From the NCBI GenBank assembly GCA_016287155.1, contig JAEEWC010000022.1, positions 1 through 58,121 on the forward strand: a DNA stretch of 58,121 nt. The letters are read 5' to 3'. The DNA comes from Clostridia bacterium (GTDB taxonomy: Bacteria > Bacillota > Clostridia > Christensenellales > UBA3700). Position numbers and translations under genes: made by a program. Under the pieces are notes generated by a model that saw nothing but the letters and a program-made list of their open reading frames with translations, was not told the DNA's origin and searched no databases. Shown piece after piece: positions 32,662 through 40,321 of this stretch; positions within the stretch are counted from its first letter, which is position 1; every line of letters starts with the position of its first letter.

Positions 32662-33351
32662 TTAAGCTTCGTCTTGGAACCACTTATCTAGTGAATCGTC
32701 ATTTGGATTAGATGATGATGCACTTAATAGCTTAAATAGCTTTGAGAAGTTATCTGCAGATGTGATTGTTTTTGGCTCAACAAGTGGTGAGAATTTTCTC
32801 AATACTTCCTTGTTGAAGTTCTTACCAATACCAACTGGGAATACTTTAACTTCTTTTGCTTGTACCATTCTAGAGAATTCAGTAGCTGCAGCCATATAGT
32901 TATCTGTTGGAAGACCATCAGTCATAATAAGCATAATTGGCTTATAGTGTTCGATGTCATTAGATCTATAATAATTTCTTCTTAGTTTTAATAGATCCAT
33001 TGCCTTCATAACAGCAGCGCCCATTGGTGTTCTGCCATATGGTTTTAGTGGAGCGTATTTTAAGTCCTTAATGTTTGTATATCCACATACAACATCAACT
33101 TCGTCTACGCCACCGAAAGAAATGATGCAAATATCACAAATTCTAGATGCTTTTGCATTTCCTCTAACATAGTCCAAGAATTCTTTTAGGTTCTTATTTA
33201 GTTCTTCGATTTTTGTAAGTTGTGAACCATCTTTTTCGTCCATTGATCCACTTCTGTCCAAAACAAGACAAATTGGAACACGTCTAGATACGTTAATATC
33301 TAATGAACTCCAATCTCCAAAATTTACTTCATCGTCGATGTAGTCAGCCAT
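32662..33351 (-). CDS. TerY-like von Willebrand factor A protein, intact MIDAS
   Basis: RRVPICLVLDRSGSM (DxSxS), GRTPMGAA (Thr) and LIMTDGLPTD (Asp), the TerY/YegL-like pattern. Confidence 0.85.
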   Translation of the reverse strand: MADYIDDEVNFGDWSSLDINVSRRVPICLVLDRSGSMDEKDGSQLTKIEELNKNLKEFLDYVRGNAKASRICDICIISFGGVDEVDVVCGYTNIKDLKYAPLKPYGRTPMGAAVMKAMDLLKLRRNYYRSNDIEHYKPIMLIMTDGLPTDNYMAAATEFSRMVQAKEVKVFPVGIGKNFNKEVLRKFSPLVEPKTITSADNFSKLFKLLSASSSNPNDDSLDKWFQDEA

Positions 33352-33353
33352 AA

Positions 33354-38034: not shown

Positions 38035-40321
38035 AACTTATAACCTTCCTCCTTCCTACAATTACTAATATTAAGATGAGCATCATGATACCACCGCTGA
38101 TACCAAATAATACCCACGCTTCCATAATATGAGCATTCTCATATACTACTTTATACATTGATGTGTAACCATTTACACCTTCAACTTTTATATAATAAGT
38201 TCCTTGTTTTTCAAGTCTTACATCTTTTGGGTCTACTAATTCAAGACTATTTTCATCTCTTCCGACATAAACTTTAGCAACGATTTCATTGATTATAATT
38301 GGCTTATCATAAACTTGATTATCAGCAATTCCTAATTCTTCTGTTATAGTGATTGTTTGAGTATATACAGCCTTATTATCTCTCGTAGAATCAAGAATAC
38401 GAAGAGTATGATTACCTATTTCGTTAACAATTATAGAAGCACTTCTATTTTCGTCAGTCTCTTCTTGCCCCTCTTCTTCTTTAACATCAAGAATTACGCC
38501 GTCAATTTCAATCTTATTGTTGTAACCTTTCATTGTAGACAAAGCTAAAGCCGTGTTAAATGTAGTTGCCCTTGGCACGGCACTTATATATGCTCTTATA
38601 TTTTCGGCAACAGTCCAATGCGATACGATTCTATCTGATTGCGTTAAAATATGTAATTTAGATTTAGAAGTACCATCTTCCGCCTTATATTCCGTAAAAT
38701 AATACATACCAATAATTGTATATTTACTCAAATACTCCGACATCTTTTCTGTTGTAATTAGAACATTTACCGTATTATATGTAATCTTAAATACTTGTTC
38801 TTCCCCATCTATGACAAATGAAATATCATATTGATTTGCAGTATATGTTGCATAAAGTGTTACATCGCCTGGAATTGTATATGGTTTGTCTAGACTAAAT
38901 ACTACATTATCTGCTGTAGTAAAAGCTGAAAAAGTATATCCTTCTTTCTCTGGCACACAACCTTGTGGTTCTTTATCAAATACGACATCTTGAACAATAT
39001 TCTCTTTGCCATTATTTAAAACATATGTAATTTTATATGTATTTGCAGTCCATGAAGCTACAAGTTCATGGTCGCTTTTAACTTCCACAATTGAATCTTT
39101 TGTTATTTTCTTACCTTCATATTCCCAACCATCAAATGTATAACCATCTCTAGATGGCGCAGAAAATAATGTGCCATATGTAAGAGAATAAGTTACTGTC
39201 TTTGTTTGATCATCGCAATTGTTCGATAAAATACAATCTAATTTATGTTTCGTATAATTAAACTCAATTGTTTCTTCTTTAACATAATCTTCTGAATTAA
39301 AATCTTTTAAAGAAACGATATTGCTTTTTAATGAATCCCCTGTGCCTTTTGTATAGTTTTCAACGAAATAGACATAATCATATATTGGGTTTGGCTCTTC
39401 ACCATTTAATATATCAAATTGCCCGTTTTTTATAACACATTCTGTTCTAAACAGTTGTTTATTTGCTAAACCATAATCAGAATACCATACTTTAATACGA
39501 AACGCCGGATGTCTAATGATTTTTAAATCGCTATAAATATCTACATCAATTGTAGTCATTGGATTATTATTTTTATCTGCATATACAAAATAACGTCCAG
39601 TCTCTTCATACATTTCTAATATTGGTTTCAAATTAGAGCCTGCATAAGTAGTTTCTGTAGCAATTGGAGTATTTAAATTCGTATTATCATAGATAGAAAC
39701 TATAAATTCTTTTAAATGTCGAACTTGAAGAATTCCAATATCTTCACTAATTGGTTCATCAACAGTATCTGAAGTTATTAAGTCACCTTTTTTGTCTTCA
39801 GCTAATGAATTGTAGTAATAATACTCGTAATCATAGCCTATTTCCTCGTTTACTTGAATGTCAGCATAAGAAAATGTAGATAAATATTTAGTATCAAGCA
39901 AATTAAATACAGAATTTTCATATAAATAAAACTTTACTTCATACCCAACAAACGTAGCATATTGAACAATTGTTACATCTTCTGTTAACGCAATTGGGTT
40001 GATAGTATTTTGAATTTCTGCCCCAAGATGGTCTTCAGCAGTCACATCATAATAGTAATATTTATATGAATATCTTGGATTTTCATTAATTTGAAGTTCA
40101 GAATACAAGAAAGATTCTTTATCTACAAGCGTACCAATTGTTAATACTACATCTTGCGTTGTTAAATTATAATCTTTAATTGTAATAGTATATGTAGGGG
40201 TTGGTTCTGGATCTGGATCGGCATATACTAGATTTGTAGCAAATAAAGCGGCAAAAACCATAATAAGCAATATGCTTAATATGGCGAATATCATTCTAAA
40301 TTGCGCTCTTCGTGCTTCCAT
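38018..40321 (-). CDS. 767-aa type-I surface protein with tandem ~80-aa modules, Listeria-Bacteroides repeats and a C-terminal TM anchor
   Basis: Signal sequence ending LVYA-DPDPEPTP. Repeated modules carry Y.Y.YYYY cores. RDGYTFDGWEY...LVASW and KEGYTFSAF...LYATY repeats. TM segment AWVLFGISGGIMMLILILVIVG followed by RRK. Confidence 0.7.
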   Translation of the reverse strand: MEARRAQFRMIFAILSILLIMVFAALFATNLVYADPDPEPTPTYTITIKDYNLTTQDVVLTIGTLVDKESFLYSELQINENPRYSYKYYYYDVTAEDHLGAEIQNTINPIALTEDVTIVQYATFVGYEVKFYLYENSVFNLLDTKYLSTFSYADIQVNEEIGYDYEYYYYNSLAEDKKGDLITSDTVDEPISEDIGILQVRHLKEFIVSIYDNTNLNTPIATETTYAGSNLKPILEMYEETGRYFVYADKNNNPMTTIDVDIYSDLKIIRHPAFRIKVWYSDYGLANKQLFRTECVIKNGQFDILNGEEPNPIYDYVYFVENYTKGTGDSLKSNIVSLKDFNSEDYVKEETIEFNYTKHKLDCILSNNCDDQTKTVTYSLTYGTLFSAPSRDGYTFDGWEYEGKKITKDSIVEVKSDHELVASWTANTYKITYVLNNGKENIVQDVVFDKEPQGCVPEKEGYTFSAFTTADNVVFSLDKPYTIPGDVTLYATYTANQYDISFVIDGEEQVFKITYNTVNVLITTEKMSEYLSKYTIIGMYYFTEYKAEDGTSKSKLHILTQSDRIVSHWTVAENIRAYISAVPRATTFNTALALSTMKGYNNKIEIDGVILDVKEEEGQEETDENRSASIIVNEIGNHTLRILDSTRDNKAVYTQTITITEELGIADNQVYDKPIIINEIVAKVYVGRDENSLELVDPKDVRLEKQGTYYIKVEGVNGYTSMYKVVYENAHIMEAWVLFGISGGIMMLILILVIVGRRKVISYVRND
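39256..40192 (-). repeat. four tandem ~80-aa protein modules within the 767-aa gene
   Basis: Compare ...ELQINENPRYSYKYYYYDVTAEDHLGAEI..., ...DIQVNEEIGYDYEYYYYNSLAEDKKGDLI..., ...MYEETGRYFVYADKNNNPM... and ...EEPNPIYDYVYFVENYTKGTGDSL... Each starts with a beta-strand such as YTITIKDY, YEVKFYLY, FIVSIYDN or RIKVWYSD. Confidence 0.55.

Follow-up and report, generated by a model that had tools for sequence, protein, structure and literature searches.

A recurrent six-gene cassette of uncultured Clostridia in which a TerY-P-like vWA, PP2C and kinase triad accompanies a new membrane protein family and a hypervariable surface protein

We analysed the 58,121-nt contig JAEEWC010000022.1 of assembly GCA_016287155.1 (hereafter the window), from a Clostridia bacterium (UBA3700) that is uncultured and of gut or rumen origin. 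At positions 32662-40321 it carries a cassette of six genes, all on the minus strand, whose products measure 229, 442, 324, 207, 598 and 767 aa by increasing coordinate in the list of open reading frames (ORFs). In the direction of transcription they encode a surface protein, the 598-aa membrane protein of a family here called TM598, a second vWA protein of 207 aa (vWA'), a PP2C phosphatase, a 442-aa serine/threonine kinase (STK) and a vWA protein. The known TerY-P switch occurs here in a membrane-attached and apparently undescribed form, which brings with it a new protein family and has a hypervariable surface protein as partner. A preliminary description of this stretch had delimited the same six ORFs, and their coordinates and lengths were recovered unchanged. 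The compared loci are designated L001-L101, and the elements of the cassette are as follows, where MIDAS stands for metal ion-dependent adhesion site and AF2 for AlphaFold2.

38018-40321, minus strand: type-I surface protein, 767 aa (Pfam Flg_new 4.4e-11; hydropathy)
36238-38034, minus strand: TM598, putative membrane scaffold, 598 aa, new family (hydropathy, AF2)
35625-36248, minus strand: vWA', TerY-type paralogue, 207 aa, degenerate MIDAS (Pfam VWA 0.0021, below the gathering threshold)
34666-35640, minus strand: PP2C_2 Ser/Thr phosphatase, 324 aa (Pfam PP2C_2 1.1e-39)
33354-34682, minus strand: soluble Ser/Thr kinase, 442 aa (Pfam Pkinase 3.4e-9)
32662-33351, minus strand: TerY/YegL-type vWA, 229 aa (Pfam VWA 1.4e-11, VWA_2 7.8e-7)
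32606-32641, minus strand: intrinsic terminator (10-bp stem with 5 GC pairs at 32641-32616, 6-nt loop, T-run)

The six genes form one translationally coupled block, with junctions of -17, -11, -16, -17 and +2 nt, the values given in the preliminary description. For the vWA'/PP2C junction that description had also offered an ATGA overlap, which we prefer: since the phosphatases of all relatives begin with MI(L/F/V)xKW, the window PP2C probably starts at Met5 (35628), and therefore the junction would be an ATGA overlap and the protein 320 aa long. The hairpin and U-tract already noticed at the end of the cassette correspond to an intrinsic terminator at 32641-32606, in which TATTTTTTTG follows the stem (32641-32616).

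The fold assignments made earlier for the vWA, PP2C and kinase proteins were recovered by Pfam, pairwise and structure searches, the motifs quoted for them are all found in the translations, and the proposed correspondence to E. coli yegL, yegK and yegI is borne out by homology for all three proteins. The 229-aa vWA, the most conserved gene of the cassette, is 33% identical to E. coli YegL (E 1e-28) and has in common with it the signatures P.CL.LD.SGSM, TPMG and Y.P...(I/M)TDG.PTD. Its MIDAS is intact (DRSGS, T and D; motif DRSGSM..TDG) and it ends in a conserved Ser-rich tail, LSASSSNPNDD..W. This protein also matches phrog_28389, a function-unassigned family (1.9e-23), so that some phages encode related vWA proteins. 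The phosphatase aligns with E. coli PphC (YegK) at E 9e-18 and contains the motifs CQDN, VSDGAGS, GDG and MSDG, with the metal-binding DG.GS kept family-wide. The kinase aligns with E. coli YegI (E 5e-5) over residues 183-440, the whole catalytic domain, and this alignment includes GGEG, VGDxxxxN and IDSxSFQI; its translation holds VSGGEGTCYK, FFVKLY, HRKNILVGDMKPDN and DSG. With the AF2 model of the kinase (pLDDT 89.5), Foldseek retrieved PknB, AMPK and further kinases at about 1e-9. Because the G-loop GGEG, K198, D294/K296/N299 and D312 are invariant in 40 homologues, the enzyme should be catalytically competent.

Hydropathy analysis revealed no hydrophobic or transmembrane (TM) segment in the kinase, and a Zn-ribbon, OB or HhH domain at the C-terminus was not recovered by Pfam; in the AF2 model, three helices make up the 60 residues that follow the C-lobe. 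The N-terminal domain (residues 1-135) is modelled as an alpha/beta domain in which the order of strands and helices is compatible with a PIN-like fold. This domain gave no Pfam match, including in a per-member scan, and no PDB profile match to PIN, and hhalign was negative against the N-regions of L015 and L010. Against the aligned PIN-like regions of related kinases hhalign gave a weak match (E 0.02) in which FID pairs with FIDT and TQQ with TQD and two of the four PIN acidic positions are missing, while the full-length kinase hidden Markov model (HMM) aligns through the PIN-like region of L029 and L033. If PIN-like, the domain is probably non-catalytic. None of the six cassette proteins produced a TerY-P match in PADLOC-DB v2, a result that carries no weight because the control proteins YegL, PphC and YegI of E. 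coli match no model there either.

The second vWA protein, vWA', is homologous to the first (phmmer/HMM 1e-5 to 1e-17), and a C-terminal GW/KW motif is common to both. It had been described as having a dead MIDAS, of which the degeneracy stands: where the vWA reads DRSGSM..TDG, vWA' reads VDNSAAM..TDA, the complete DxSxS...T...D motif is absent from the window protein (D-N-S-A-A, aligned with the vWA family and YegL), and all family members have a hydrophobic residue (M/F/I/L) where TP(M/L)G has its Thr. The site is not simply dead, however, given that the Asp and first Ser are kept and the final Asp is mostly kept across the family. The fifth MIDAS position is Ala only in the window lineage, being Ser or Thr elsewhere (DNSAS, DNSAT). 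The C-terminal tail of vWA' contains Ser/Thr in the pattern (K/R)R.(S/T)TP. An N-terminal extension of about 170 aa lengthens vWA' to 371-384 aa in L010 (7889-9043) and L101 (7936-9051). In L101 the extension matches the kinase profile (E 1e-8) and hence corresponds to the alpha/beta N-domain of the kinase; this N-domain appears to be fused to vWA' in both loci.

TM598 had been noted as a protein with three TM helices and a long helical soluble region, and both hydropathy and AF2 agree. The model is all-helical with a mean pLDDT of 89.3 and comprises TM helices at residues 8-43, 62-83 and 88-115, a coiled-coil hairpin (about 118-261) and an alpha-solenoid (about 267-598). The three N-terminal hydrophobic helices are kept across the whole family, and because an Arg-rich loop, RARRR, follows TM1 (positive-inside) a cytoplasmic location is predicted for the large domain. 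TM598 falls into no Pfam, NCBIfam or PADLOC family, and comparison of the model with PDB and viral structures returned a best E of 0.44 and TM-scores of at most 0.19, with only a generic ARM/HEAT-like resemblance. A resemblance to beta-catenin was not accepted as homology, the match being non-significant. TM598 is a new protein family without a Pfam model or structural neighbour. In an exhaustive HMM search the family amounts to 69 representative clusters, nearly all of about 590 aa, and F207, E582 and R585 are invariant across 48 members with a mean identity of 27%. The profile search made with these 48 sequences returned 31 proteins, which do not include the distant members; the distant contexts were reached through the kinase. 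The L010 homologue is shortened to 433 aa.

The remaining cassette product is the 767-aa surface protein, for which the earlier reading as an extracytoplasmic repeat protein is upheld by a signal peptide, Flg_new repeats and a C-terminal anchor. Its signal peptide or N-terminal TM segment lies at about residues 10-28 and its TM helix at about 737-755, followed by a short basic tail (RRK...). Between them, a variable ectodomain with the Flg_new repeats stands above a conserved membrane-proximal module of about 120 aa, which closes with a Y.N(P)N-like motif. Across cassettes, the surface proteins encoded upstream have lengths of 381 to 1946 aa and, for most of the sequence, no relationship to one another; what they have in common is the signal peptide, the module of about 120 aa, the TM helix and an RR(R/K) tail. 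An HMM of this C-terminal module matches every upstream gene (1e-13 to 1e-130). The layout of the C-terminus (window 38018-38150; L001-L012) has Y.N(P)N, then after 3-5 residues a hydrophobic helix, and finally RR(R/K), which is reminiscent of a sorting signal, yet is neither LPXTG nor NPQTN, and in the window the motif has degenerated to YENAH. The LPXTG sortase motif is absent from the 767-aa protein.

Whether homologues of the two membrane proteins neighbour such triads in other genomes, a check proposed in the preliminary description, has a clear answer, as they always do, in at least eight flanking contexts. Close relatives (TM598 37-90% identical) keep the cassette together with the entire synteny from rarA, the two ABC genes and ruvX to the small ORF and DUF1292 gene beyond it. 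Since the whole region is syntenic, these relatives alone cannot separate linkage from shared ancestry. The kinase is better conserved: its family, with proteins of about 440 aa, counts at least 148 clusters among metagenome-assembled genomes of Clostridia and Oscillospiraceae and includes seven distant loci (38-47% kinase identity), all with the identical six-gene order, in these surroundings:

L009: glycosidases, beta-lactamase-like genes
L010: serine recombinase, sigma factor
L011: Schlafen/AlbA gene, type I restriction enzyme
L012: another Flg_new protein
L099: sugar and sporulation genes
L100: integrases, Fe-S cluster genes
L101: Y-family polymerase, DUF5131

Component HMMs match in these distant loci at 1e-51 to 1e-170 for TM598 and 1e-47 to 1e-89 for vWA'. 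The same order is present in every locus of the kinase clade with enough sequence, and a metagenome scan with the kinase alignment added shorter loci (L016-L024) that fit the cassette pattern. Beyond this clade the pattern ends: about 45 loci with distant kinases (26-33% identity) have a plain STK-vWA-PP2C or STK-vWA arrangement in which TM598, vWA' and the surface module are absent, and these three are likewise missing from the plasmid loci L014 and L015 and from the sole viral locus, L098. Judged from these comparisons of sequence and gene order, the cassettes form a clade of their own among TerY-P-like systems, one whose core is six genes.

The cassette genes differ widely in their rates of divergence, both family-wide and within the species (the window against L097/L096). 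The values, as identity to the window, were:

vWA: 94 to 43% family-wide; 100% within the species
STK: 85 to 38% family-wide; 97% within the species
PP2C: 83 to 37% family-wide; 98% within the species
vWA': 74 to 29% family-wide; 93% within the species
TM598: 63 to 20% family-wide; 87-90% within the species
Surface protein: about 30% family-wide, alignable only near the membrane; 43-47% within the species
his genes, rarA, ruvX, rpsB and tsf: 96-100% within the species

Divergence therefore decreases stepwise from outside to inside, from the surface protein through TM598 and vWA' to the triad. NG86 estimates for the same-species pairs give the surface gene a ratio of nonsynonymous to synonymous divergence (dN/dS) of 0.34, rising to 0.54 in its central quarters, at a dS of 1.35; neighbouring genes show dN/dS values of 0-0.06 and a dS of about 0.25-0.45. 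The alleles of the surface gene are, to judge from its high dS, old and may be maintained or exchanged by recombination. For TM598 the dN/dS is 0.11 overall and falls from 0.16 in the first quarter, which holds the TM helices, to 0.07 in the last; between the strains, identity is 92-98% over residues 401-598. This inward gradient fits co-adaptation of the membrane part of TM598 with the surface protein.

Two further genes accompany cassettes of other lineages. An XRE-type helix-turn-helix (HTH) gene (204-249 aa) stands ahead of the surface gene wherever the cassette lies outside the ruvX synteny, and a small Zn-ribbon protein with two to three TM helices (DUF4190-like) is encoded after the last vWA in many cassettes, including those of the synteny relatives L001 and L008.

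XRE-type HTH gene: L010 1209-1823; L011 844-1593; L012 264-929 (N-terminus ..ITL(T/A)QLA.DL.(V/I)SRPTLD.YI..)
Zn-ribbon/TM gene: L001 15375-15806; L008 15363-15800; L011 12077-12604; L012 11295-12208; L019 7520-7960; L022 5158-5508; L101 11980-12477

The window has neither of them, and its terminator comes directly after the vWA gene. The HTH protein is probably the cassette's own regulator, which the window lineage seems to have replaced by read-through from the rarA-ruvX unit, and the Zn-ribbon/TM protein is possibly a membrane effector lost from the window. A different relative is represented by L036-L066 and L098, mostly human-gut metagenome contigs, in which each kinase (408-443 aa) has a vWA gene of about 265 aa behind it and our PP2C model detected no phosphatase beside the kinase; these loci may be a two-gene relative of the triad, with one copy on an IMG/VR viral contig (L098).

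The preliminary description had placed the operon boundary at 40321, which does not hold, as ruvX (40321-40758, minus strand) overlaps the 767-aa gene by 1 nt and tight packing continues further upstream. The features on that side are:

40321-44569, minus strand: ruvX, a 12-TM ABC-2-like permease, an ABC ATPase and rarA/mgsA, the cassette-ward neighbours upstream (ORFs and Pfam)
44582-44610, minus strand: candidate promoter of the long unit in the hisIE-rarA spacer (TTGAAA, 17 nt, TAAGAT, extended -10 TG; weak, from a consensus scan only)

From the 767-aa gene up to rarA the junctions comprise overlaps of -1 and -7, an overlap between permease and ATPase, and a spacing of +1, and a terminator scan found no minus-strand terminator between rarA, the ABC genes, ruvX and the 767-aa gene. 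In this organism, therefore, the transcription unit, of about 12 kb and ten genes, probably begins in the hisIE-rarA spacer and ends at 32606. The promoter scan of the region gave 71 sites against 76 expected from shuffles, so there is no excess, and internal promoters are neither called nor excluded; an Rfam scan of the window returned no RNA families. The ABC transporter, ruvX and rarA were rejected as components of the system, since none of them is present beside any non-syntenic cassette. In the window ruvX and the DUF1292 gene (31795-32178) are 8.1 kb apart with the cassette between them, and in Bacillus subtilis the two are adjacent (yrrK-yrzB). This adjacency suggests that the cassette is an old insertion between ruvX and the DUF1292 gene in an ancestor of the lineage.

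Other variable envelope genes and a small ORF lie close by. The permease gene (40752-42509, minus strand) is 81% identical between same-species strains, with a dN/dS of 0.15 and a dS of 0.8, against 96.7% for its partner ATPase and 100% for ruvX; the window permease has no Pfam match and its relatives give faint 12TM_1 or ABC_tran_2 matches. It constitutes another membrane-exposed divergence hotspot in the long transcription unit. On the other side, a gene flanked by DUF1292 and rpsB (28840-31614, minus strand) encodes a surface protein of 924 aa with GLUG/Flg_new domains, a C-terminal TM helix and an acidic tail. In L097, of the same species, DUF1292 leads directly to rpsB, so that this gene is a strain-specific insertion or deletion; at a distance of only 1 kb from the cassette, it is the second variable locus for a surface protein. 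The DUF1292 gene and the cassette terminator are separated by a conserved 76-aa ORF (32281-32511, minus strand) that belongs to no Pfam or PHROG family; it has its own promoter-like site (32563-32535), a ribosome-binding site and a downstream hairpin with T-run, is 97% identical in L097 and is also present in L001 and L005.

We consider, at a probability of about 0.5, that the locus is a membrane-anchored, conserved variant of the TerY-type vWA/PP2C/STK switch, scaffolded and coupled to a diversifying surface receptor. In such a system the variable ectodomain would bind an external ligand, be it a phage, another cell or a host molecule, and the TM anchor of the surface protein would pack against the TM helices of TM598; coupling would have to run through such TM-TM contacts because the surface protein has a cytoplasmic tail of only 5-12 residues, too short and too variable for signal transfer. 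On the cytoplasmic side, the coiled coil and solenoid of TM598 may scaffold both vWA proteins, and the soluble kinase and PP2C would set the phosphorylation state of the complex, the likeliest targets being the vWA tail LSASSSNPNDD and the vWA' tail (K/R)R.(S/T)TP. Phosphorylation could then toggle MIDAS-mediated assembly on or off, with the invariant Glu582 in the C-terminal helix of TM598 as a candidate MIDAS ligand that would complete the metal site. The output is probably at the membrane, because no nuclease or other enzymatic effector is encoded; candidates are TM598 itself and, in other lineages, the Zn-ribbon/TM protein after the last vWA. The graded divergence backs the idea, put forward in the preliminary description, of an envelope-spanning sensor or effector gated by phosphorylation.

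A number of observations weigh against this reading. The cytoplasmic tail of the surface protein, besides being so short, has no conserved Ser/Thr, and the reliance on TM-TM contacts with TM598 leaves the coupling putative; the interactions, phosphorylation targets and phenotype are likewise all predictions. The window encodes no clear toxic effector and lacks the Zn-ribbon/TM gene. The extended cassette is absent from the phage and viral collections searched, including IMG/VR contigs, and from known plasmids, on which TM598 has no match. In the window lineage the cassette keeps its place among core housekeeping genes even where TM598 identity has fallen to 37%, a placement unusual for a defence system, and recognised defence genes adjoin just one of about eight independent contexts (L011). 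Finally, the graded divergence of TM598 could in part be a recombination tract and not co-evolution.

Four other explanations were weighed. The one that competes most seriously, although we hold it clearly less probable than the switch coupled to a surface receptor, sees no defence system in the cassette and takes the surface protein for an adhesin or antigen of a gut commensal, whose clustering, display or turnover the triad would govern from the inside out, as in integrins, with host IgA or niche driving the hypervariability. Flg_new, GLUG and Bact_surface_Ig-like are typical adhesin modules, metabolic or housekeeping genes surround the cassette in most of the independent contexts, a toxic effector is not encoded, and adhesion control would also agree with the stable, vertical inheritance of the cassette in a core locus across a deep lineage and with the second strain-variable GLUG/Flg_new surface gene nearby (28840-31614). 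It fits less well with the nearest characterised relatives of the triad, which are tied to conflict systems and anti-phage activity, with the recombinases or restriction genes of some contexts, and with a cytoplasmic tail too short and variable to serve as a conserved regulatory handle. Mobility or defence neighbours occur in some lineages (the serine recombinase of L010, the restriction and Schlafen/AlbA genes of L011, the integrases of L100), and we weakly favour surface surveillance, outside-in and possibly anti-phage as for plain TerY-P, over a housekeeping role. A more specific proposal in that direction, a split transmembrane immune receptor whose ectodomain would sense phage adsorption or envelope contact and signal by TM-TM contacts to TM598, so that the switch triggers an abortive response at the membrane, is rather unlikely in our estimate.

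We regard as somewhat less probable still that the cassette is cargo of mobile elements for entry or surface exclusion, or for kin or contact discrimination, where the ectodomain would recognise donors or neighbours and the switch would block DNA entry or alter the envelope. The XRE-type HTH gene ahead of the non-syntenic cassettes does give them the look of a self-contained regulated module, a serine recombinase, integrases, a Y-family polymerase and DUF5131 adjoin L010, L100 and L101, and plain PIN-kinase/vWA/PP2C triads reside on conjugative or mobilisable plasmids beside transfer genes; yet TM598 has no plasmid or viral matches, no conjugation genes adjoin any extended cassette examined, and the window copy occupies a stable core position. 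Least credible by far is a chance juxtaposition of an ordinary TerY-P triad with two unrelated membrane genes in a long housekeeping operon. The complete synteny from rarA to DUF1292 would permit it within the window's lineage, but the cassette genes overlap, TM598, vWA' and the surface module never occur with more distant kinases, and chance is excluded because the six genes recur in the same order in at least eight contexts that lack the housekeeping neighbours.

The switch coupled to a diversifying surface receptor, if real, would bear on a wider problem. TerY-P triads are widespread, one being anti-phage and one residing in E. coli K-12, yet their trigger, substrates and output are still to be defined. 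The cassette supplies candidates for the partners of the switch, namely the 598-aa solenoid protein and the two vWA paralogues, and for the signal, namely the ectodomain; if the coupling is true, the TerY-P mechanism becomes directly testable. The cassette also points to a surface locus that is hypervariable within a species of uncultured Clostridia from gut or rumen, and loci of this kind usually indicate pressure from phages, host immunity or competitors. Should the split-receptor proposal prove correct, bacteria would possess an equivalent of receptor-kinase innate immunity, and a sensing route would be known for the first time for a TerY-P-type system.

The preliminary description knew of no account of this extended form, and in the literature searched we found no description of a TM598- or surface-linked TerY-P form; an earlier mention in the founding 2012 paper is possible. 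The nearest known system is the TerY-P triad itself (Anantharaman, Iyer, Aravind 2012, as far as it is summarised in PMC11090510 and PMC4978471), which like the window has an operonic TerY-type vWA, PP2C and Hanks-type STK in three adjacent genes, an adjacency kept in all relatives, and for which the proposed logic is the metal/MIDAS-dependent phospho-switch also proposed here. A stand-alone TerY-P is anti-phage and protects against T7-like phages (Gao et al., 2020; PMC11090510). The arrangement differs, being vWA'-PP2C-STK-vWA in the window and STK-vWA-PP2C in plain TerY-P. The kinases differ as well: that of the CoCoNuT-linked TerY-P has a C-terminal Zn-ribbon and that of the Gao form an OB fold (PMC11090510), whereas the window kinase has neither and instead carries the N-terminal alpha/beta domain. 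The cassette adds to the triad an obligatory degenerate-MIDAS vWA', the protein with three TM helices, coiled coil and solenoid, and the hypervariable type-I surface protein; it has no associated nuclease, helicase or McrBC-type partner.

In E. coli, YegI and PphC are a biochemically active kinase/phosphatase pair, and YegI has the VGD-type catalytic loop and the IDS.SFQI motif of the window kinase. YegI is membrane-integral (double-pass) with a C-terminal HhH region, while the window kinase is soluble and lacks HhH; in the window, membrane attachment is supplied by separate proteins, and the E. coli system has a single vWA and no surface protein. Type III-A CoCoNuTs resemble the window in their duplicated TerY-type vWA genes bracketing other components in an operon with PP2C and STK (PMC11090510). 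Their vWA pair brackets EssC-, SpoVK- or VirB4-like ATPases (PMC11090510), that of the window only PP2C and STK; moreover, the cassette lacks ATPases, McrBC, HEPN domains and helicases, its additions are membrane and surface proteins, and its hosts are uncultured Clostridia.

The closest annotated relatives of the kinase (28-31% identity) belong to PIN_4-kinase/vWA/PP2C triads of Lysinibacillus pFN9B, a Paenarthrobacter AT5 plasmid and gut metagenomes. As in the window, a domain lies N-terminal to the kinase and vWA and PP2C are adjacent, sometimes with an HTH upstream. These kinases are, however, 750-870 aa long, contain a genuine PIN_4 domain and end in treble-clef or other domains, and their triads lack TM598, vWA' and the surface module. 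A functional analogy only can be drawn with PknB/PrkC/Stk1 and the Stp1-type PP2C, in which an extracellular sensor likewise works with a Hanks-type kinase and its PP2C partner. The cassette is without PASTA domains, and the NCBIfam scores fall far below the cut-offs; where PknB/PrkC unites PASTA sensor, TM segment and kinase in one polypeptide, the window splits these parts over three proteins and adds vWA adaptors.

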